Shown here piece by piece: positions 1,208 to 22,950 of a stretch of 25,173 nt of DNA; position 1 is the stretch's first letter; each line of letters opens with the position of its first letter. The notes under the pieces are model-generated. The model was not told the DNA's origin, did no database searches, and saw only the letters and a list, made by a program, of their open reading frames with translations. The translations under genes and the position numbers were made by a program. The stretch lies in IMG/VR virus record IMGVR_UViG_2703718872_000032; one strand, given 5' to 3'. Source of the DNA: a virus (lineage: Duplodnaviria; Heunggongvirae; Uroviricota; Caudoviricetes).

Positions 1208-2503
1208 TTAATTTTTCATTGCTTCGTTATGGGGCATGGTTGGGGCAAACTCGCTTAACTGTGTATTTAACAAAGCTACCTGTGCATTATTGTTTTCAGA
1301 CATCCATTTTCCGTATACCTGAAATACCATTTGCGCATCTGCATGGCCCATCTGGTTTGCTATAAATGCCGGGTTAGCACCAGCTGTCAGCGACCAGCAG
1401 GCATAAGTATGTCTCGACTGATATGATTTTCGATGGCGGAGTCCGGCACGTTTTATCGCTGCGTCCCACATCTGCCTTATTGAGTCAACGGTAAAATGGT
1501 CACCATAATTTTTTACTCTCGCTGACACTTCAGGTTGAAAAACAAAGGTGCATTTTTGTTTTTCTGTTCTGCCATACTCTCTGAGGTGAACATCAATGAT
1601 ATGCTCTTTGCTCAGTCTCGTTAATGTCATCTGACTCCGGAGAGCGTCGATTGCTGGCTTAATAAGATGAATGACCCGATTGGTTCCCGCCTGTGTTTTT
1701 GGTACCGTGAAACGGTCTTTTGCTAAATTTCTCCTGATCATCATTGTTCCATTTTTCAGATCTATGTCCTCCCATCCAAGTGCACACAGCTCACCAGGGC
1801 GAACGCCAGTATAAACAGAAACACACCATAAATTTTTTGCTTGCTGATTTCTGCACGCATCGATAAGACGGATAAATTCTTCCCGCGAAAGAGGATCCGG
1901 AATGGTTCTTGATTCCTTTAATGGCGAGATCCCCTTAAACGGATTATCTGCCAGGTAACCGTTATCAACACCAAACTGGAACACGGCGTTAAGATTTGTC
2001 ATGTAATTATTTACAGTTACAGCCGATCTCCCTGGTTGTGTAACAATATAGTTACTTTTGGGGATCTGGTATCCAGTCAGTAACTCTTTACGAGCCTCCA
2101 GTAATTTTTCTTTATTAATCGATGAGGCAAGATTTTTTTCACCGATTATGCTCAGGATATTTTTGATGACGGCACGGTATGTGTTGAGTGATGTTTTGGC
2201 GACTTCAGTTTCTTTCAGTGCCAGAAATTTTTCAGCCAGTTCTTTTATGGTTAAATCTTGTCGGGCCTCACCAAATTTTTCCAGATTGCGTGAGGAGGGA
2301 AACTGTTTTGCATAGTCGAAAACACCAGTTTTTATTGCGTAACAAACAGAGGAGCGTAGTTCACCTGCAACGCGCCTGTTTTTTGCTGTGTCAGGAACCC
2401 CCAGATTTTCCCTGACTCTTACGCCTTTATAAACAAACCAGATACGTAATTTCCCTCCATGGTTTTCCACGCCTGTCGGATATTTCATTTCAACTTCTCT
2501 CAT
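1208..2503 (-). CDS. Phage tyrosine integrase (lambda Int family), apparently intact
   Basis: 431-aa ORF (426 aa if it starts at the second ATG, 2488). C-terminal catalytic region with conserved R...HxxR...Y pattern (RHRKSYQSRHTYA ... HADAQMVFQVY). Sits adjacent to the chromosome junction. Confidence 0.85.
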   Translation of the reverse strand: MREVEMKYPTGVENHGGKLRIWFVYKGVRVRENLGVPDTAKNRRVAGELRSSVCYAIKTGVFDYAKQFPSSRNLEKFGEARQDLTIKELAEKFLALKETEVAKTSLNTYRAVIKNILSIIGEKNLASSINKEKLLEARKELLTGYQIPKSNYIVTQPGRSAVTVNNYMTNLNAVFQFGVDNGYLADNPFKGISPLKESRTIPDPLSREEFIRLIDACRNQQAKNLWCVSVYTGVRPGELCALGWEDIDLKNGTMMIRRNLAKDRFTVPKTQAGTNRVIHLIKPAIDALRSQMTLTRLSKEHIIDVHLREYGRTEKQKCTFVFQPEVSARVKNYGDHFTVDSIRQMWDAAIKRAGLRHRKSYQSRHTYACWSLTAGANPAFIANQMGHADAQMVFQVYGKWMSENNNAQVALLNTQLSEFAPTMPHNEAMKN

Positions 2504-5963: not shown

Positions 5964-6021
5964 AAAAACGGCGGTAGAGCAGTCACGGAGTAAAACTGAT
6001 ACTGCCAAACGTCACCAGAAA
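5964..6021 (-). ncRNA. dicF: DicF small regulatory RNA (ftsZ-targeting) with 3' stem-loop and U-tract
   Basis: Minus-strand sequence tttctggtgacgtttggcagtatcagttttactccgtgactgctctaccgccgttttt matches the DicF sRNA as I recall it; located just upstream of dicB. Confidence 0.8.
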
Positions 6022-8406: not shown

Positions 8407-9352
8407 ACGCCCACTGGTTATAAACACGCAGCTGGCAATGAAAATCGGCTTAAACGAAGCCATTGTTTTGCAACAACTGCACTACTGGTTGAGAGATACC
8501 AACTCCGGTATGGAATGTGATGGTGTTCGCTGGATTTATAACACAACGGAACAATGGCTGGAACAGTTCCCATTCTGGTCAGAGTCAACGTTAAAGCGCG
8601 CGTTTGCAAGTCTGAAAACGCTGGGGCTTTTGCGTTGTGAAAAGCTCAATAAATCAAAGCGCGATATGACCAATTTCTACACGATCAACTATGGGAGCGA
8701 GCTTTTAGATGGTGGCAAATTGAACGAATCCATCGGTTCAAAATGCGCCGCTCCATCAGGTCAAAATGACACGATGGAAGAGGTCAAAATGAAACGCTCC
8801 ATTGGTTCAAAACGACCCAATGTCATCGGGTCAAAATGGCCTGATGATCTTACAGAGAATACAACAGAGATTACTACAGAGAATAAAAACACTTTTCGTC
8901 CGGAAGCTTCGCAACCGGACCCGCAGACGACTGAACAGGATTTTTTAACCCGGAACCCCGACGCGGTTGTGTTTAGTGTGAAAAAACGCCAGTGGGGTAG
9001 CAGGGAGGATTTGGCGTGTGCGCAGTGGATTTGGGGGCGGATCGTGAACCTTTACGAACAGGCTGCCAGCGACGATGGAGAGATCATGCGACCAAAAGAG
9101 CCTAACTGGACAGCCTGGGCCAATGACGTGCGCACAATGCGGATGCTGGATGGCAGAAGCCATAGACAAATTTGCGAAATGTTTGGTCGGGTACAGCGGG
9201 ATCCATTCTGGGTAAAAAACATCATGAGCCCGTCAAAACTCCGCGAAAAATGGGACGAACTGGTCATCCGCCTGGGACGTTCACCTGAACAGCGTTGTGT
9301 GAATCATATTTCTGAACCGGATACAGAAATTCCGCCTGGTTTCAGAGGATAA
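8387..9352 (+). CDS. Phage replication initiator (lambda O-like organiser) containing the origin iterons
   Basis: Start at MSLLFAERPLVINTQ (internal Met of track ORF 8333..9352). Position after cro/cII-like genes. The gene body contains five 23-bp-spaced repeats that encode a repeated IGSK peptide motif, as in lambda O/ori. Confidence 0.7.
   Translation: MSLLFAERPLVINTQLAMKIGLNEAIVLQQLHYWLRDTNSGMECDGVRWIYNTTEQWLEQFPFWSESTLKRAFASLKTLGLLRCEKLNKSKRDMTNFYTINYGSELLDGGKLNESIGSKCAAPSGQNDTMEEVKMKRSIGSKRPNVIGSKWPDDLTENTTEITTENKNTFRPEASQPDPQTTEQDFLTRNPDAVVFSVKKRQWGSREDLACAQWIWGRIVNLYEQAASDDGEIMRPKEPNWTAWANDVRTMRMLDGRSHRQICEMFGRVQRDPFWVKNIMSPSKLREKWDELVIRLGRSPEQRCVNHISEPDTEIPPGFRG
8731..8838. repeat. 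Replication origin iterons: 5 direct repeats at exact 23-bp spacing (consensus catcggtcaaaatg)
   Basis: Copies start at 8731, 8754, 8777, 8800 and 8823. Followed by an A/T-rich stretch with acagaga repeats (8852..8885). Confidence 0.65.
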
Positions 9353-9887: not shown

Positions 9888-9917
9888 GGTTGTCCGCTTT
9901 GTGCCAGGAGCGGACGT
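9888..9917 (+). repeat. att-like site A: GGTTGTC + inverted repeat GTCCGC/GCGGAC + conserved 18-mer TGTGCCAGGAGCGGACGT
   Basis: 18-mer at 9900..9917 is identical to 12452..12469. Same GGTTGTC prefix as sites B and D. Confidence 0.5.
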
Positions 9918-10007
9918 TGCTAATGGCATGATGTATGAACCAATGGAGAACCGATCATCTATACACATATAGATCCCTAACGAAAATATTGTTTTCACTA
10001 GCCCTGT

Positions 10008-10044
10008 AATGGAAGCGTTAATTTTATATTCTAACGCTTCCATT
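10008..10044. repeat. Perfect 13-bp palindrome with 11-nt loop (aatggaagcgtta ... taacgcttccatt)
   Basis: Read directly. Lies 3' of the SDR gene but is not followed by a T-tract on either strand. Confidence 0.5.
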
Positions 10045-10096
10045 GAGCCTACCACTTTGGCAAAGCAATTCTTACACTTCAAAATAATGTGCTTTT

Positions 10097-10843
10097 TTAT
10101 TCAGCTAAATAACCGCCATCGATTGGATAAACGCCTCCGGTACAGAATGTAGAACTGTCTGACAGCAAGAACAATATGAAGTCTGCTATTTCCTGCATTT
10201 TTGCCATCCTTTTCATAGGGTGGCTATTTGCGAAACTACTTACAATATTTTCAGGGAACTCACTCATTCTTTGGGTTTGGACATAGCCCGGAGCGACTGC
10301 ATTGATTCGAATGCCTTGACATGCAAACTCTAGCGCTGCGGTTTGGGTTAAACCGATTATACCATGTTTAGCCACGGTGTAAGGTGCTAATCCAGGAATG
10401 CCAACCAGACCATTTACTGCAGATAAATTAACTATAGATCCACCAAACTTCATCATCTGGGGTATTTCATATTTTAGGCAGTGAAAAACGCCGCTCAATG
10501 AGGTAGCAATAACCTTATCCCAGTTTTCAACTGTCTGCTCTGTTATATTTTTACCATGTTCACCTGTTAAGCCTGCATTATTTACAGCATAATCAAGTCT
10601 GCCGAAATGTTTGATAACCTCATCTATCATTTGCCGTACTTGTTCGGGCTGTGACACATCACATCCGATCCCCATGGCTTGTTGTCCCTGTGAAGATAAT
10701 TGTTCCGCTTTTTGTTTAGCCTGTTCTGACGAGCGGGATACAATAACAACTTTTGCACCATGCTTATGTAATTGCTCTGCGACGGCCTCACCTATACCTG
10801 TAGTGCTTCCTGTTATAACGGCAATTTTATTCTGGAAATTCAT
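10097..10843 (-). CDS. Short-chain dehydrogenase/reductase (SDR) family oxidoreductase (248 aa)
   Basis: TGxxxGIG cofactor motif (ITGSTTGIGEA), NNAG, and catalytic YxxxK (YTVAKHG). ATG at 10843 preceded by AGGGGG. Confidence 0.85.
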   Translation of the reverse strand: MNFQNKIAVITGSTTGIGEAVAEQLHKHGAKVVIVSRSSEQAKQKAEQLSSQGQQAMGIGCDVSQPEQVRQMIDEVIKHFGRLDYAVNNAGLTGEHGKNITEQTVENWDKVIATSLSGVFHCLKYEIPQMMKFGGSIVNLSAVNGLVGIPGLAPYTVAKHGIIGLTQTAALEFACQGIRINAVAPGYVQTQRMSEFPENIVSSFANSHPMKRMAKMQEIADFILFLLSDSSTFCTGGVYPIDGGYLAE

Positions 10844-10914
10844 AACCACCCCCTATGAAGTAGAATTGAGTCTTTCATCTGGGATAGTATACAAACCATC
10901 TGTGACAGTTTTTG

Positions 10915-11604
10915 TCAGTACTCTTTCCCCTCGCAGATCCCTTCTTTTATTCTCCATTTTTTCAATAAAATTGTCCTGCTTTCACTATAGTTGGAGTCAA
11001 GTTGCACAATATCTTCAATTTTGTCAGTTCTAAAATGACGAAAATCATTTCTCATCTCGCACCATGCAACCAAAAGCCAGCACGATTCCATGTATACCAA
11101 TCCGATGGGCCATATGACTCGTGAAGTGTAAGAATCTTTTTTATCACAATAATTTATTTTGATTTTCTTTCTTTTTTTTATAGCATTGCGAATGTCTTCA
11201 AAAAAAATCTCATTGTTTTCTGATGGACCGATCAGATAGGATTGACTCTCAATAAGATTTTTCAATTCACTGGGAATGACGGCGTGTATTTTCGCAAGCG
11301 CATTCTTTGCGGTAATTTTGAAATTATAATCTGTATTGTGCGATACCCAATTTAACCCAAGTGTAATAGCATTAATTTCTTCATGAGAAAGATTTAAGGG
11401 GGGCAAATGAAAGTCAGATTTAACAATATAACCAATTCCAGCACCACCTTCAATGCATACTCCTTGATGCTGCAGCGTTTTTATATCTCTGTAAAGGGAG
11501 CGTACACTTATTCCCAATCTTTCTGAGAGGATGGATGCTGTGATCGGATATCTTTGTGCCCTTAATATTTGTAGTAACTCGAGAAGTCTTTCTGTTCTAG
11601 TCAT
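10915..11604 (-). CDS. HTH + WYL-domain transcriptional regulator (YafY-like), 229 aa
   Basis: N-terminal HTH (MTRTERLLELLQILRAQRYPITASILSERLGISVRSLYRDIKTL) followed by a WYL-like central region. Same strand as the SDR gene, immediately upstream of it. Confidence 0.75.
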   Translation of the reverse strand: MTRTERLLELLQILRAQRYPITASILSERLGISVRSLYRDIKTLQHQGVCIEGGAGIGYIVKSDFHLPPLNLSHEEINAITLGLNWVSHNTDYNFKITAKNALAKIHAVIPSELKNLIESQSYLIGPSENNEIFFEDIRNAIKKRKKIKINYCDKKDSYTSRVIWPIGLVYMESCWLLVAWCEMRNDFRHFRTDKIEDIVQLDSNYSESRTILLKKWRIKEGICEGKEY

Positions 11605-11822
11605 GTTGATAAATCCATTTTGAGGCGATTTCTTAAAGCATCTGTTAGATAAACATATTAGTACAAAGCAAGTGTACATGGCTAAGCTGAACTGCTACCG
11701 ATGATTAATACAGCGCTATGTTCGTAATGCGTACATAAGCGGTGATCATGAGTGTAAACATCCGCTTTTCGCTTATAAGGGACAACCATACTCAAATTTC
11801 CCACATTGCAGGAGATTTGAGT

Positions 11823-12425
11823 ATGAATACGTCACCGTGGAACAAAGACCGTATCATCGGCCAAAAAAGACCACTTCAGATATCTCATATCTGGGGGATC
11901 CGAATCCGGCTTGAACTGGAAGGTAAAACGCGCGATTTAGCTCTGTTCAATATGGCCCTGGACAGTAAGCTTCGAGGCTGTGATCTGGTCAAACTCAAAG
12001 TATCGGATGTGGCATATGGTAGTTCGGTTTCAAGCAGAGCAACGGTGTTGCAACAGAAAACCGGTAGCCCTGTGCAATTCGAGATAACCAAAGGGACAAG
12101 AGAAGCTGTTGCTGCATTGATAAAGCTTGGCAATTTGCACAGTAAAGACTTCTTGTTTCGGTCTCGGGTCGGAACTAACCAGCACATTTCAACCCGGCAA
12201 TACAACCGAATCTTTCATGGGTGGATAGAAAAACTTGGTCTCGAAGGTTCACTTTACAGCACACATTCAATGAGAAGAACAAAACCTTACCTGATCTACA
12301 AGAAAACCAAGAATCTCCGGGTGATCCAACTTCTGTTGGGTCATAAGAAACTGGAAAGCACAGTCCGTTATCTGGGCATTGAAGTCGATGATGCGTTAGA
12401 GATCTCTGAATCGATTGAAGTCTAA
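11823..12425 (+). CDS. Small tyrosine site-specific recombinase, FimB/FimE-like (catalytic domain only, 200 aa)
   Basis: ATG at 11823 preceded by AGGAGA. Alignable by eye to FimE: RDLALFNMALDSKLRGCDL vs ARDYCLILLAYRHGMRISEL; STHSMRRT vs THPHMLRH; LLLGHKKLESTVRYL vs DYLGHRNIRHTVRYT (conserved R, H-x-x-R, H, Y). Confidence 0.8.
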   Translation: MNTSPWNKDRIIGQKRPLQISHIWGIRIRLELEGKTRDLALFNMALDSKLRGCDLVKLKVSDVAYGSSVSSRATVLQQKTGSPVQFEITKGTREAVAALIKLGNLHSKDFLFRSRVGTNQHISTRQYNRIFHGWIEKLGLEGSLYSTHSMRRTKPYLIYKKTKNLRVIQLLLGHKKLESTVRYLGIEVDDALEISESIEV

Positions 12426-12469
12426 GGTTGTCAGGGCTGCAACAGCAGCCCTGTGCCAGGAGCGGACGT
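12426..12469 (+). repeat. att-like site B: GGTTGTC + perfect hairpin GGGCTGC-AACA-GCAGCCC + 18-mer TGTGCCAGGAGCGGACGT
   Basis: Starts right after the recombinase stop codon. 18-mer identical to site A; whole site is near-duplicated (degenerate) at 13971..14014. Confidence 0.55.
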
Positions 12470-12576
12470 CTAGTTCGCTGAACCACAAAAAGTCGTTTCT
12501 AGTTATATTACTGGCTCATTAGTATCTTTATGCGATAATATTTCATACAACCAAAATTATGATGAAGGGAGTTCAA

Positions 12577-13698
12577 ATGGCAATTACGGTCTATTCTCGT
12601 ACATTCAAAAAGGAATTGGACATGGTTCAATTGTTAAACCATTACTCATCAGATAACGCACTCAATTTCAGTGATTTCAAGGAATTTGTTGCCTTTGATG
12701 CAGAGTGCCCAATTTGCAATGTAAGCGGTGCGATTGTTGTTTCAGAAGGTTATTCGAAAAGAACAAATAAGATAGTCAGCCAATCTCATTTTGCGTTTAG
12801 AACAAAAGACGGAACTGATGCACACAAAGTATTTTGCGATCATTACAGTGGTGATGATAAGCAAATAGATTCATCAAGGGATGGTTTTATAAAATTCGGC
12901 ACCTCAGGTTCTGAGATTACAAGTATAATTCGCGAGCTTGTATGTAGAGGTATTGAACATGATGAGTTCAATCAGGAAGATATTCGAAACATGCGGCAAT
13001 GGTTTACAGAATTACGCCAGTCAGGCACTTTTTCTGTTAACTATAGCCCTCACATGATCAATCTAATAAGGGCCAGCATGTATTCCCGTAAGGGAGAAAG
13101 TAAATATATTGTAGATGAAGAGAGGAAAAATAAATCTTGGTTTGATATAAACGATGAAGTGTATCGTTCGTTAAGATTCAAATATCCATCATTGATGATC
13201 GACATGACTAATGAAAATAATTCTGTTTTCTATAATCTTGTGAATAGTACCACATTTACTAAACAAGCACATCGATTAGTAGCACGAGATCGAGGTTATC
13301 AGGTTTATGATAGAAGGTTGCTTAAAGAAAAATATGAAGCAACGATAAGAGTTGCACAAAAAATAACCAGGCATCACGAATTTCTTTTTAGGAAAATCAG
13401 GGGTATATCCGCTGTTAAAAAAAACAACCCCCTTTTGGCTGTATCTGCCTTGCTTCTTTTTGTCTCGGACTGGAATGAAACAACTGCAATCAACAAATTC
13501 ATCAAATTGTGTGGTGTAGGGAAATCTAAAAATAATGATGAGGGGAATGTAATTGGCTTAAATCCCTTTATTCATTACGATGTCTGGAATGTTATTCATC
13601 AACTTAAGGATTTAATGGTTACACTTCCAGACTTCTCAAATCTTGATGAAGAATTTGACAGAGAAAAATCCAGATTAATTGAACTTTACAAGCTCTAA
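12577..13698 (+). CDS. Hypothetical protein (373 aa), AT-rich cargo gene of unknown function
   Basis: Long ORF with AAGGGAG RBS 5 nt before the ATG at 12577. Visibly lower GC than the flanking phage genes. Contains CPICN and CDH motifs. No family recognised. Confidence 0.65.
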   Translation: MAITVYSRTFKKELDMVQLLNHYSSDNALNFSDFKEFVAFDAECPICNVSGAIVVSEGYSKRTNKIVSQSHFAFRTKDGTDAHKVFCDHYSGDDKQIDSSRDGFIKFGTSGSEITSIIRELVCRGIEHDEFNQEDIRNMRQWFTELRQSGTFSVNYSPHMINLIRASMYSRKGESKYIVDEERKNKSWFDINDEVYRSLRFKYPSLMIDMTNENNSVFYNLVNSTTFTKQAHRLVARDRGYQVYDRRLLKEKYEATIRVAQKITRHHEFLFRKIRGISAVKKNNPLLAVSALLLFVSDWNETTAINKFIKLCGVGKSKNNDEGNVIGLNPFIHYDVWNVIHQLKDLMVTLPDFSNLDEEFDREKSRLIELYKL

Positions 13699-13740
13699 CA
13701 TAAACTAGCAGGCTGCGTATACAGTCTGCTAATTTTCATA

Positions 13741-13970
13741 GTAAAGACTTCATGCTTCAGTCTCGAGTTGGAGCTATCCGTCACACATCACCCAGGCAAT
13801 TCAACCGAAATTTTTCATGGGGGGTAGAGAAGTTTTGTCTCGAAGATTTGCTTTACAGCATACTAATCATTGAACCTCTGTTGAACCATAAGAAACTGGC
13901 AAGCACAATCCGTTGCTTGGGCATTGAATTCGACGATGCGTCGTATAGCTCTGACTTGAACAAAACATAA
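13741..13970 (+). pseudogene. Degenerate duplicate of the recombinase 3' end (about 230 bp, with internal deletion)
   Basis: DNA from agtaaagacttc onward parallels 12141..12425. Translation FNRNFSWGVEKFCLEDLLYS...LNHKKLASTIRCLGIEFDDA parallels YNRIFHGWIEKLGLEGSLYS...LGHKKLESTVRYLGIEVDDA but lacks the catalytic H-x-x-R block. Confidence 0.65.
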
Positions 13971-14014
13971 GGTTTTTAGGGCTGCAACAGCACCTCTGTG
14001 TCATAGGCGGAAGT
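13971..14014 (+). repeat. att-like site C (degenerate copy of site B)
   Basis: ggtttttagggctgcaacagcacctctgtgtcataggcggaagt versus site B ggttgtcagggctgcaacagcagccctgtgccaggagcggacgt. Confidence 0.45.
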
Positions 14015-14311
14015 TAACAAACATTAAAATCTCTAAATCTGTAGGGATCAGACTCCTTCTATAAAAGGATACTGTTCATATCCTTAGTTGTATATAGGTG
14101 TGTTTAGAGTATTAGGATGCTAGTTTTGAAAATTAATTTTTTAAACATATTGAATTTTTTAAGAATTGGGAATAGTGTATAGCTTTGTCATGGCGGATTT
14201 TTTCTCTTCAAGTATTTATTTGAACACTACTTCTTGCACCTGCAAGGTTACAATATCGTGTAAATTTGTTCACAAAGACATAGATTATAATTTTTACTTA
14301 AAGGAAATTCA

Positions 14312-15565
14312 ATGTCAAAAAATCTCCCGGTTTTATTAAGCTCGCCATCAACAACTAATTTTCCTGCAACAGTTAATACTGAAATAGAATTCCTTTCGCA
14401 AGCTAGAAAGTTGTTAGATTCTGGCTTCCCTGATCATGCTCTTTTAGATATATGGAATGCATCCATTCATAATCTTAGGCGGCGAATTGAGGCTTATGGT
14501 TTAGACTTATTCCTTTCCGCAATAAAGGATGATAGTGGTCGTAAAAAATATGATAAAGATGGTGAAACAATAAACGAGAGATGGTCAGGTGTAGATGATT
14601 TAGTGCTAATAAGTGGAGCCACCAAATTAGGGGTTCTGCATAAGAAAGCTGGAAAATCATTAGAAATGATCAATTGGATGAGAAACCATGCCTCTCCAGC
14701 CCATGCAAGTGATAGTAAAGTAGAGTCTGAGGATGTGTTTGCTTTGGCTCTTATGCTCCAGAAGAATTTATTCGAATCTGATATGCCAGACCCTGGACAT
14801 TCGCCATCTGGATTATTTGAACCCATAAAAAAATCTGAACTATCAATTGAGAGCATAGACTTACTTAAAGATCAAATAAGAGCATTTAAGCAAGCTGATA
14901 TAAGAATAACATTTGGATTTTTATTGGATTTAATAACTAAGGGGGAAAATCCTGCTTATGTTAATGCTAGCAAGTTGTTTGAACAAGCATGGGAAAGATC
15001 TAATGATGACCTTAAAAAAACAGCGGGGGAAAGATATCACTCATTTATGCTGGAGCCCGAATCGGATACAAGTGAGGATAAAGGAGCAAAAATAAGAATT
15101 TTAGAGACTTTAGTAAAAGTTAATGGTGTGAAATTTATACCTGATGCTGCTAGGGCAAGTTTATACAGACATGCGGTTAAACAGCTAGCTAAAGCTAAGG
15201 ATACATCTTACGGCTGGAATGATGAAGAAAGAGCAGCCAAGGCACTTATACAATTTGGACCTCATGTTCCATCTATTGCTTTTGAAGATGTATATCAAGA
15301 AATACTTACTGTTTGGGTGGGGAATTACTGGGGAAGATCTGATGCACATTTAGTACTTCAACCATTTTTAGATGTGTTAAATAGTAATCAATTGATGGCT
15401 CTCTCACGGTTGTTCGTGGAGAATGAAAGAGCAAATTCAGAACTGGTGTCATCAAGGCCCAAAAGAAGAGCAATAGAATTACTTGAGATAATAAAAAATA
15501 ATCTAACAATTCAAGCAAGCATTGATGAAATTGATAGGATTATTTCTGAAATTGATAAAATGTAA
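14312..15565 (+). CDS. Hypothetical protein (417 aa), AT-rich cargo gene of unknown function
   Basis: Long ORF with AAGGAAA RBS and an AT-rich upstream promoter region. Intrinsic terminator directly downstream. No family recognised. Confidence 0.7.
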   Translation: MSKNLPVLLSSPSTTNFPATVNTEIEFLSQARKLLDSGFPDHALLDIWNASIHNLRRRIEAYGLDLFLSAIKDDSGRKKYDKDGETINERWSGVDDLVLISGATKLGVLHKKAGKSLEMINWMRNHASPAHASDSKVESEDVFALALMLQKNLFESDMPDPGHSPSGLFEPIKKSELSIESIDLLKDQIRAFKQADIRITFGFLLDLITKGENPAYVNASKLFEQAWERSNDDLKKTAGERYHSFMLEPESDTSEDKGAKIRILETLVKVNGVKFIPDAARASLYRHAVKQLAKAKDTSYGWNDEERAAKALIQFGPHVPSIAFEDVYQEILTVWVGNYWGRSDAHLVLQPFLDVLNSNQLMALSRLFVENERANSELVSSRPKRRAIELLEIIKNNLTIQASIDEIDRIISEIDKM

Positions 15566-15577
15566 TTTATTTGCAAT

Positions 15578-15610
15578 TAAGCCATGCTTTTTAGGTGGCT
15601 TATTTTTTTT
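15578..15610 (+). terminator. Rho-independent terminator after the 417-aa gene
   Basis: Stem taagcca/tggctta with 11-nt loop, followed by an 8-T run. Confidence 0.6.
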
Positions 15611-15682
15611 GAATCTACTACTTATATTGATATTAGCAATGTAATTGCTAAAGTATTCCTAGCCCACTATTCATCTAAATAT

Positions 15683-15741
15683 GGTTGTCGAAAGGCCCGC
15701 TTCTCGCTCAAAGCGGACTAGAAGGTTAGCTTGTGTCGGAC
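15683..15741 (+). repeat. Possible degenerate att-like site(s) D
   Basis: ggttgtc + inverted repeat ccgctt/aagcgg + agcggac (15683..15718), then aaggtt...tgtgtcggac (15722..15741). These resemble the outer motifs of sites A and B but without the intact 18-mer. Confidence 0.25.
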
Positions 15742-16183
15742 TTTGCGTATTAAATGACTAGTGGTTGAGCCCCATTTCCACAGAAAAAATCAGAGAAACT
15801 ATACCCAATAGTTGTATTGAATCACTGACGAGACAGCCTCATATTCATCAGGACTGGTGTACGTCCAATACAGGAGGTTGTGGTGCTGGTTCTCAAATGT
15901 GCGCTGGCTATTACGGCTGTAATGGCGATTTATTGTCTTGCTATTGTTCTTATGGATCGCCTTTCTGACTGATTTCACATTGGCGAGGTAACGGTAGTTA
16001 AGTAGAATGGCTGCGGGTGCTTGAGGCTATCTGCCTCGGGCATGAACACCAACGGCAGATAGAGAAAAGCCCCAGTTAACATTACGCGTCCTGCAAGACG
16101 CTTAACATTAATCTGAGGCCAATTTCATGCTAGACATATGTAGGTTAGCCTCTTACGTGCCGAAAGGCAAGGAGAAGCAGGCT

Positions 16184-16339
16184 ATGAAGCAGCAAAAGGC
16201 GATGTTAATCGCCCTGATCGTCATCTGTTTAACCGTCATAGTGACGGCACTGGTAACGAGGAAAGACCTCTGCGAGGTACGAATCCGAACCGGCCAGACG
16301 GAGGTCGCTGTCTTCACAGCTTACGAACCTGAGGAGTAA
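16184..16339 (+). CDS. hokD: Hok/Gef-family type I toxin (51 aa)
   Basis: MKQQKAMLIALIVICLTVIVTALVTRKDLCEVRIRTGQTEVAVFTAYEPEE matches HokD (RelF) as I recall it. An in-frame upstream ATG at 16127 gives the 70-aa track ORF. Confidence 0.8.
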   Translation: MKQQKAMLIALIVICLTVIVTALVTRKDLCEVRIRTGQTEVAVFTAYEPEE

Positions 16340-19103: not shown

Positions 19104-19644
19104 CTTTAAATGGGGCAATAGAGATATTGAATCTCATCCCGGGATAAACATTGGCAGTTGAAGGTCCACGCGAACCATTTATCCAGCAAAATTCCACGCG
19201 TAATCCTGTGGTAATTTCTTCTGCATCTCGAAGATTGAGAGCTGAAACGTGAAGCTGGGCATCGATACGCCATCGGATGGGAATATAAGACCTTTGCTGC
19301 TTTTGTAGTCAAAGTTTTTGACAATTCCTGTCATTTTAGGGGACAGAAAAACTCCTTAATACTGATAACCTGGTGCACCATACACACGTTCCTGGAGAAA
19401 ACTACTTTTTTGATAGGGTTGAAGGTGGCTGGATGTCTAAAATAAACATTGCTTCATATGTTCAACTATGAGTTAATGACTGTGTCGGTTTGAAGAACAG
19501 ACGATATACGAAGTAGTTTACTAAAGCAGTTCTCATTTCAGGTGTTATTCACTTATTCCTTCTTTGAGTCTCTCCAATTAAGTACGAAGTCGTTTCTGTT
19601 ATGCAAACCATTTATGCCGAAAGGCTCAAGTTAAGGAATGTAGA

Positions 19645-19860
19645 ATGTCAAATAAAATGACTGGTTTAGTAAAATGGTTTAACGCTGATAAAGGTTTCGG
19701 CTTTATTTCTCCTGTTGATGGTAGTAAAGATGTGTTTGTGCATTTTTCTGCGATTCAGAATGATAATTATCGAACCTTATTTGAAGGTCAAAAGGTTACC
19801 TTCTCTATAGAGAGTGGTGCTAAAGGTCCTGCAGCAGCAAATGTCATCATTACTGATTAA
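19645..19860 (+). CDS. cspB: Cold-shock protein, CspA family (71 aa), CspB-like
   Basis: [38 protein letters not shown]... with RNP1/RNP2 motifs. Long upstream 5' UTR. Confidence 0.85.
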
Positions 19861-20144
19861 AATTCATCGCTCGTCTGTATACGATAACGAAGAAGGCTGA
19901 TGCCTGAGTAGAGATACGGACAGAGTAGTGAATATTGGATCTCTTTAATAAAAAGTAAGGAGGTCCAATACATGAAACAATGGCCAGCATATTTGGCAAA
20001 ATCTTAATCAGGAAAAGTATGCTAACCATTGTGGTGAAGTGCAGGTTTGCTGCATGAATAGTTTCACAGCAGAAGCTAACTGCTGGCATCGCAAAACAAA
20101 GTGCGTAAGTGGATGACTCCCACAAAAAGCACCACAATCTCAAA

Positions 20145-22168: not shown

Positions 22169-22530
22169 GGTAATATTAAATCGGAACATTTACATCGCGG
22201 AATGTAAAATTTAAATAAAAAGGACTCTTCCATGAGCCAAAATTCCTGAAATCTTAAGGGTAAGATAAAAGGTCTTAATCAGAATGACACGTTTTATTAA
22301 TAAATAAAGCTATTCTTTCATTGCTGTGTTTTTCTTTACAAAAGTAATCCTTGCTATGGGTGGTTAATCATGCGTTAATGGTGTTCTGGTTTGTTACAAA
22401 TTTATCTGAAGCAGTCATTGTTATAATTTTATTATTTGTACCTCTTGAGATTTCCTTGTTGGTTTTTCTCTCTGATATTTTTTTTCGGACCATTCTGCCC
22501 AAGGGCTAATTTCTTCAAAAGGTAATAATT

Positions 22531-22743
22531 ATGTCTAACAAAATGACTGGTTTAGTAAAATGGTTTAACCCTGAAAAAGGTTTTGGTTTCATCACGCCGA
22601 AAGATGGCAGCAAAGATGTGTTTGTCCATTTCTCAGCAATTCAGAGCAACGATTTCAAAACATTAACTGAGAATCAGGAAGTTGAATTTGGTATTGAGAA
22701 CGGACCTAAAGGTCCTGCCGCTGTTCATGTAGTGGCGCTTTGA
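22531..22743 (+). CDS. cspI: Cold-shock protein, CspA family (70 aa), CspI-like
   Basis: [70 protein letters not shown]. Confidence 0.85.
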
Positions 22744-22950
22744 GGTAGACAATATTACAAACCATATTCACTTTAGATGCCCGTGTTGTCATGGTTCCCA
22801 GTATAGAACATCATCTTTTGATGTTTCTGACATGAATCCTTTCGGGGCAAAATGTATCTTTTGTAAATCAATGATGATTACATTTGATAATATTTCACAA
22901 TACTTAAATGCTAGCCGTCTGTCGTTGGATTTAAAAAAGTGAAAATGAAG

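Follow-up and report, generated by a model that had tools for sequence, protein, structure and literature searches.

A small tyrosine recombinase set between two types of palindromic site in a cryptic lambdoid prophage, and its probable role in the shuffling of gene modules

A cryptic prophage of Shiga-toxin Escherichia coli encodes, besides its own integrase, a tyrosine recombinase of only 200 residues (hereafter rec), which lies between palindromic sites bounding swappable gene modules and which, from that position, probably drives an integron-like system of module shuffling. In our reading, which we put at a probability of roughly 0.55, rec is the dedicated recombinase of a modular gene-exchange system built on two heterospecific 24-bp core sites. 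We advance more tentatively, at a little under even odds, the broader proposal that rec and its two sites constitute an unrecognised platform, widespread in the Proteobacteria, by which multi-gene modules, often with defence functions, would be inserted and swapped among prophages, ICEs, islands and plasmids. The evidence for both proposals is comparative: the conservation of the recombinase, the layout and strict order of the sites, and the distribution of identical modules among otherwise unrelated replicons.

The recombinase and its family

The window, by which we mean the whole stretch of 25,173 nucleotides analysed here, is a Qin-like cryptic lambdoid prophage integrated beside rspB. It is 100% identical to sequence in NZ_CP075632.1 and two other genomes. 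The prophage comprises, in order, integrase, excisionase, exonuclease, dicB, DicF, dicA/dicC, an O-like replication gene, a Ren-like/DUF977 gene, a 5.8-kb insert, sok/hokD, rem, ydfU and an antiterminator. The insert (9916-15694), which carries rec, has a GC content of 37.8% as against 46-49% in its flanks. Its terminase is frameshifted and it contains pseudogenes, so that the prophage is defective. Rfam models place DicF at 5969..6020, the sok antitoxin RNA of hokD at 16015..16189 and two cspA-type thermoregulator leaders at 19484..19876 and 22385..22770, the last two of which account for a 200-nt direct repeat at 19645 and 22531. Four tandem 23-nt units (CATCAGGTCAAAATGACACGATG-like) at 8754..8846, within the O-like replication initiator gene, are probably the iterons of the prophage origin. 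The features that bear on rec and its sites are collected in Table 1.

Table 1. Coordinates of the two recombinases, the sites and the modules within the window
Feature	Position	Strand	Remarks
Prophage integrase, lambda-type	1208..2503	-	Arm-DNA-bind_2 and catalytic domain; adjoins excisionase, abuts rspB; outside the module system
T1 site A	9892..9915	+	GTCCGCTT-TGTGCCAG-GAGCGGAC; PWM score 45.4
Module 1 cargo	9916..11759	-	SDR oxidoreductase (10097..10849), HTH-WYL regulator (10915..11679)
T2 site upstream of rec, partly degenerate	11760..11783	-	minus strand GTCCCTTA-TAAGCGAA-AAGCGGAT; PWM score 19.2
rec, intact catalytic-domain-only tyrosine recombinase, 200 aa	11823..12425	+	ATG after AGGAG; R51, K79, H148, R151, H174, Y183
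9-bp GC hairpin	12432..12453	+	immediately 3' of the rec stop codon; stands where site B would have its T1 outer arm
T1 site B	12452..12467	+	spacer TGTGCCAG and inner arm GAGCGGAC; direct repeat with site A
Module 2 cargo	12468..15694	+	379-aa (12559..13698) and 417-aa (14312..15565) proteins; decayed rec junction between them
Dead copy of rec 3' half	13719..14012	+	about residues 100-191; HxxR box lost, catalytic Tyr to Cys; repeat families D2, D3
Degenerate T1 site (site C)	13997..14012	+	TGTGTCAT-AGGCGGAA; behind dead rec copy and hairpin
T2 site D	15695..15718	-	plus strand GCCCGCTT-CTCGCTCA-AAGCGGAC; PWM score 37.8

The presence of a 200-residue recombinase, noticed in an earlier note on this DNA, is confirmed. 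The reading frame is intact and has a good ribosome-binding site, and RefSeq annotates a 'site-specific integrase' (WP_024178309.1) at identical coordinates. The protein matches Pfam Phage_integrase (PF00589) with E=7.4e-18 and 65.3 bits (curated cut-off 27.1) over residues 35-184, so that only about 34 residues precede the catalytic domain, and Pfam reveals neither an arm-binding nor a core-binding domain in it; it also matches phrog_216, 'integrase', at 8.7e-32. All six catalytic residues are present, they align with the motifs of FimE and XerD, and across 26 relatives they are invariant save for R151, which is retained in at least 90%. Judged by its sequence, rec is a member of the tyrosine recombinase superfamily; lacking a core-binding domain, it may require cofactors. 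An AlphaFold2 model computed from a shallow alignment had a mean pLDDT of 48, too low for the fold to be judged. The lambda-type integrase of the prophage is, as the earlier note had also held, a separate protein: it possesses the N-terminal arm-binding domain that rec lacks, has an excisionase adjoining it, and shows no meaningful pairwise similarity to rec. These results support the view that rec is a second, minimal tyrosine recombinase with a role distinct from prophage integration.

A word-indexed search returned more than 8000 relatives of rec, and the 120 matches listed are 78-97% identical to it, almost all of 200-203 residues, and derive from genera including Escherichia, Proteus, Providencia, Pantoea, Idiomarina, Pseudoalteromonas and Cycloclasticus. 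An exhaustive search over 1.84 billion cluster representatives gave 560 rec-family clusters (50% identity) at E<=1e-30, the full-length ones being of about 200-210 residues. Among species-level genomes, relatives at 60-66% identity occur even in Pseudomonas, Burkholderiales and Methylophilaceae, and copies 95-98% identical to rec in Pectobacterium, Buttiauxella, Pantoea and Klebsiella point to recent horizontal spread. Because the relatives are natively of about 200-210 residues, with the catalytic residues intact, we rejected the possibility that rec is a truncated fragment of a larger integrase or a pseudogene. We also rejected a remnant of the K-12 'intK'/YdfW type, to which rec has no similarity, YdfW being the protein formerly named intK. 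The IntKX group, for its part, comprises the PAPI-1-type ICE integrases (Smyshlyaev et al. 2021, PMC8138268). The rec family is large, consists of the catalytic domain only, and is apparently undescribed; full-text literature searching, with a coverage too incomplete to prove novelty, found no description of the family or of the T1 and T2 sites discussed below.

The description of rec as 'FimB/FimE-like' in the earlier note holds for size and architecture and does not hold for family. The NCBIfam invertase models NF007371 and NF007370 score 24.4 and 16.7 bits on rec, as against cut-offs of 222 and 221, and BLASTP gives no match to FimB and 26% identity over 155 residues to FimE. On this evidence rec lies outside the FimB/FimE family. 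Its best partial matches are to the catalytic domains of the Xer/integron type, at 53.9 bits for the NCBIfam XerA/integron-integrase model (cut-off 220) and at 47.5 and 29 bits for the XerC and XerD models (cut-offs of about 330). A profile of the 26 relatives matches XerD, the nearest solved structure though a distant one, at 4.6e-5.

Sequence related to rec is present in 974 of 5426 complete E. coli genomes (~18%), nearly full-length in 773, usually as a single copy per genome and at many different loci. It is also found in 401 PLSDB plasmids, 172 of them conjugative, with hosts that include Pantoea, Sinorhizobium, Escherichia, Vibrio and Cupriavidus (pMOL30). In 50,697 deposited phage genomes the family is all but missing, with three distant matches. 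When its contexts are compared two by two, rec has different neighbours in 376 of 378 pairs, and the comparison furnished no instance of an upstream module with rec, or of rec with a downstream module, inherited together as a unit. Clustering of the open reading frames within 6 kb of rec at about 80 loci revealed no conserved partner gene, only rec itself being conserved. Many draft-assembly contigs, among them those of eight of the loci collected, stop within a few hundred bases of the 3' end of rec, which suggests repeated sequence or heterogeneity at the junction in those genomes.

Two types of site in ordered arrays

The insert is organised by imperfect palindromes of 24 bp with an 8-8-8 layout of arm, spacer and arm, which fall into two types according to the spacer. 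T1 sites conform to GTCCGCTT-TGTGCCAG-RAGCGGAC and T2 sites to GTCCGCTK-TGAGCGAG-RAGCGGAC, the two spacers differing at positions 3 and 6. Over 410 kb of enterobacterial rec loci a weight matrix picked out 119 sites, whereas shuffled sequence gave none. The direct repeats to which the earlier note had drawn attention are real: TGTGCCAGGAGCGGACGT (18 nt) occurs exactly at 9900-9917 and 12452-12469, with 0.01 matches expected by chance.

The two outermost sites of the window straddle the boundary between phage and insert. Site A draws its outer arm and spacer from the phage backbone and its inner arm from module 1, and the backbone half is also present in phages mEp460 and Tritos. At site D the spacer and outer arm belong to the backbone, and homology to phages Evi, Tritos and mEp460 begins within the site. 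The T2 site upstream of rec stops 39 nt before the rec ATG, and in near-identical rec loci the shared identity stops after TGTGCCA at site B. Neither of the arms adjoining rec is well preserved: both are degenerate, the hairpin after the stop codon taking the place of the T1 outer arm. Such a GC-rich hairpin follows rec in nearly all relatives, and across 96 non-redundant contexts its sequence varies (about 70 stem sequences, with no T tail); folding of each sequence separately gave a median z of -3.3, with 76% below -2; the alignment of these contexts was too poor for a consensus fold. Structure is retained while sequence changes, and the hairpin may form the 3' end of an mRNA or stand in for the missing T1 outer arm. 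Pseudomonas-type relatives of rec (62% identity) are flanked by an inverted repeat of their own, GTCGCTAACCGGCCARAAGCGGMC, in which the RAGCGG half-site is kept.

Each T1 or T2 site can fold alone as a small hairpin, likewise without a T tail. A single attC-like hairpin extending over a whole junction is less likely, as folding favours two separate hairpins and the T2 and T1 outer arms do not covary by eye. A REP- or MITE-like swarm was rejected because the junction is low-copy, with 1-3 copies in each of 695 E. coli genomes. E. coli SF-468 has the same 379-residue gene as module 2, followed by a better-kept rec fragment (residues 104-200, 93% identical) and then by a different module, with DUF4365.

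Comparison of about 280 related loci revealed a strict order: T1, cargo of 0.4-6 kb, an inverted T2, 44 bp, and T1 again. In the loci found via rec, T1 on the plus strand was followed by T2 on the minus strand 32 times, across 0.6-5.7 kb of cargo, and the step from that T2 to the next T1 measured 41-44 bp in 18 cases and 684-686 bp in 4 cases, the latter with rec inside. IMG/VR contigs found via rec have the same array order and include junction intermediates with a spacing of 387 bp, in which only rec residues 162-200 are left. An independent sample of 120 IMG/VR stretches, retrieved by the exact T1 pattern alone, contained the step from T1 to inverted T2 104 times, and the following step to T1 was exactly 44 bp in 19 of 28 instances and 33-45 bp in 26 of the 28. 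The fixed spacing across loci implies that the junction, which consists of an inverted T2, a 16-nt linker and a T1 (72 bp in all), is a unit, and that rec sits at the position of the linker; in the arrays such junctions alternate with cargo modules, each of which extends from one inner arm to the other. Furthermore, in 29 non-redundant contexts of close rec relatives a T2 spacer lies upstream of the gene in 21 and a T1 spacer downstream in 24, and rec always points the same way along the arrays. The window fits this order: the weight matrix places T1 at 9891, T2 (minus) at 11757, then, beyond rec, T1 at 12443 and T2 (minus) at 15692. In the T1-pattern sample rec is present in only 7 of the 120 loci, the other 113 having no rec nearby. 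The arrays extend beyond phages to plasmids, ICEs and islands of many genera.

In the Qin prophage of E. coli K-12 (NC_000913.3 1645980-1646999), flxA lies between a T1 site, itself inside the annotated ydfV ORF, and a T2-like site whose spacer matches neither type exactly; relative to the phage backbone this arrangement is inverted with respect to that of the window. A search of 7.5 kb around the K-12 sites revealed no remnant of rec. In the lambdoid phages HannyBb and PhiR42_1 the hotspot has other content and no clear T1/T2 pair.

Shared modules, breakpoints and cargo

Three modules are shared, at 96-99.8% identity from site to site, between loci whose flanks are unrelated: 1) Module 2 of the window recurs, at 99.8% identity over the entire 3221 bp from site to site, in an ICE at a tRNA-Ser gene in other E. 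coli; both flanks are unrelated, and the two proteins travel together. 2) A one-gene module of the E. coli 042 prophage is 99.84% identical, site to site, to the sole module of phage mEp460. 3) A third module is common to a Pectobacterium plasmid and a viral contig. At the same position of the phage backbone mEp460 and Tritos have one module each, E. coli 042 has three and the window two.

The positions at which identity breaks point to the spacer. Where two sites have only the outer flank in common, their identity most often extends to spacer position 7 and is lost at position 8 or at the first base of the inner arm (46 of 99 T1 pairs and 28 of 68 T2 pairs), the remaining pairs diverging earlier; where only the module side is shared, identity extends back through the spacer and the break falls at the last outer-arm base in 12 of 15 T2 pairs and is scattered in the T1 pairs, all these pairs being phylogenetically non-independent. 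This maps the crossovers to the 8-bp spacer, where a tyrosine recombinase would be expected to exchange strands. The earlier note had weighed cassette exchange or excision at the direct repeats against inversion; the comparative data favour the former reading and speak against the latter, as all 81 pairs of shared modules are in the same orientation and that of rec is fixed. The precise product of a T1xT1 deletion of the locus was found in no E. coli genome searched.

Module 1 carries an HTH-WYL regulator (PADLOC WYL model, 3.8e-61) and an SDR oxidoreductase as an operon-like pair. WYL regulators are controllers of defence systems. SDR and LysR genes recur beside rec in other genera. The two proteins of module 2, of 379 and 417 residues, have no match in Pfam, NCBIfam or PADLOC and match only PHROG families of unknown function (phrog_12525 and phrog_27609). 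Over the arrays, modules contain 1-6 genes, and 39 cargo ORFs lie on the minus and 36 on the plus strand. The 20 cargo proteins sampled from other loci include SIR2 with HerA (twice), a deaminase with an AAA domain, a Lit-type Peptidase_U49, a dGTPase-like HD protein, HNH, DUF4365, DUF4238 and NUDIX proteins, MFS transporters and DJ-1. Among these, we take the SIR2-HerA, deaminase-AAA, Lit-type Peptidase_U49, dGTPase-like HD and HNH proteins to be of anti-phage families; the roles of the DUF4365, DUF4238 and NUDIX proteins are less certain. The modules are often anti-phage, with a cargo rich in defence genes, and this richness in the sister modules makes the genes for the 379- and 417-residue proteins candidate anti-phage genes.

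A proposed exchange mechanism, its alternatives and its parallels

In the mechanism that we propose, the RAGCGGAC half-sites would be bound by rec, strand exchange would take place across the 8-bp spacer, and each site would recombine only with its like, T1 with T1 or T2 with T2. By one such crossover a circle comprising a module and a junction would be integrated or excised. The structure of the window is exactly that expected if a phage with the module for the 379- and 417-residue proteins had taken up, at its T1 site, a circle made up of the SDR-WYL module, T2 and rec; sites A and B would then be the two products of integration. A T1xT1 crossover followed by a T2xT2 crossover would swap modules between two replicons, in the manner of engineered recombinase-mediated cassette exchange. 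The differing spacers of T1 and T2, in inverted orientation, would prevent both self-excision and inversion of a module, which fits the absence of inverted modules. Junctions and phage loci without rec would be served in trans, as are integrase-less attC arrays in integrons; since most T1/T2 phage modules and the K-12 sites are without rec, another enzyme or homologous recombination could act at these sites.

Several other explanations deserve consideration. We think it unlikely that the palindromes are conserved boundaries, such as terminator-like or protein-binding hairpins, between segments rendered mosaic by homologous or phage Red/RecET recombination at such short homologies, with rec a passenger or a protein with an unrelated job. 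Such an explanation would accommodate the ability of every site to fold as a hairpin, the absence of rec from most T1/T2 phage loci (113 of 120) and from isolated phages with sites, namely mEp460 and Tritos, and its near-absence from the 50,697 deposited phage genomes. However, the arrangement of arm, spacer and arm is the layout of a tyrosine-recombinase core site, with breakpoints confined to the 8-bp spacer, the two spacer types alternate strictly about a fixed 44-bp junction in which rec is regularly embedded, and the arrays occur on plasmids, ICEs and islands of many genera; the hairpins, moreover, have no T tail.

We accord a similarly small likelihood to the possibility that rec with its flanking inverted repeats is a selfish, IS-like element of about 0.75 kb, with 72-bp derivatives devoid of rec, which targets the palindrome GTCCGCTY|RAGCGGAC; the 'modules' would then be unmoved by rec and merely the DNA between insertions. 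The occurrence of whole modules, intact from site to site, in unrelated replicons argues against this, as do the low copy number of the junction (1-3 per genome in 695 E. coli genomes), unlike that of a proliferating MITE, and the usual single copy of rec; besides, recombination between inverted ends would not excise the element. Yet inverted repeats flank rec in both the enterobacterial and the Pseudomonas-type subfamilies, the contexts of rec are nearly all unique, many assemblies break just 3' of it, and partly deleted forms exist, all of which speaks in favour of such an element.

Less probable again is the notion that the present copy of rec is an inert relic in a cryptic prophage, of a family perhaps active elsewhere. 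The frameshifted terminase and the pseudogenes mark the prophage as defective, site C has decayed, as has the T2 site that precedes rec, and the arrangement is identical in the three STEC genomes; but the ORF is intact and 95-98% identical to the copies in Pectobacterium, Buttiauxella, Pantoea and Klebsiella, every catalytic residue is retained, and sites A, B and D match well. Finally, it is very improbable that rec is an invertase in the style of FimB/FimE, flipping the T1-T2 segment for phase variation of neighbouring genes: although it has in common with these and related invertases a size of about 200 residues, a catalytic-domain-only architecture, tyrosine-recombinase chemistry and inverted flanking sites (T1 and T2 being mutually inverted around both rec and cargo), and is 26% identical to FimE, the relation is remote, with the NCBIfam invertase models far under their cut-offs, the sites are unlike the fim inverted repeats, no inversion is seen in any of the 81 pairs of shared modules, rec keeps a single direction with respect to the arrays, and spacers that differ at two conserved positions should block T1xT2 exchange.

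A module-exchange system driven by rec would have parallels in several known systems. Like integrons, it links a tyrosine recombinase to an array of exchangeable gene units set apart by imperfect palindromes some 70 bp long; the recombinase is missing from many arrays, as it is from CALINs, the cargo is rich in defence genes, and insertion of a circular unit beside the recombinase gene may be envisaged in both. The differences from integrons are equally distinct: 1) rec has 200 residues and no core-binding domain, its length presumably leaves no room for the IntI-specific insertion, and it scores under the XerA/integron-integrase cut-off (53.9 versus 220 bits). 2) The junction consists of two 8-8-8 core sites of the duplex type with heterospecific spacers, and folding favours each site alone over one attC-like hairpin. 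3) A unit carries 1-6 genes, which may run either way, unlike a promoterless cassette of one gene. 4) rec lies inside the junction, and is not divergent from an attI.

The pdif modules of Acinetobacter likewise carry accessory genes, which may face either way, between core sites of opposite orientation; a given module can be found in different replicons, and formation and resolution of cointegrates has been proposed. In contrast to the 11-6-11 XerC/XerD sites of pdif, which are served by the host Xer proteins, the T1/T2 sites are 8-8-8 sites of two spacer types, paired in a 72-bp junction with a dedicated small recombinase embedded in it; their hosts are Enterobacterales and other Proteobacteria, and their carriers include prophages and ICEs. 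T1 and T2 have no evident similarity to dif. Nor is rec, unlike the Xer recombinases, a two-domain protein of about 300 residues, and its scores against the XerC and XerD models are under the cut-offs. Engineered cassette exchange with heterospecific lox or FRT pairs offers a further likeness, in that the flanking sites differ only in the spacer, an arrangement that favours exchange over excision or inversion; the T1/T2 system would be a natural one, and the parallel is drawn from sequence alone.

Were rec to drive T1/T2 exchange, this would explain how defence and accessory modules jump, with breakpoints exact to within a few bases, from one lambdoid prophage, ICE or plasmid to another. The succession of T1, cargo and inverted T2 would then furnish a sequence rule for finding such modules and, with them, new candidate defence genes, of which the 379- and 417-residue proteins of the window would be two. 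Integrons and Xer/dif modules would thereby gain a third natural companion, which would also be the equivalent in nature of recombinase-mediated cassette exchange; and a recombinase as small as 200 residues, with naturally heterospecific 24-bp sites, might serve as a tool for genome engineering.
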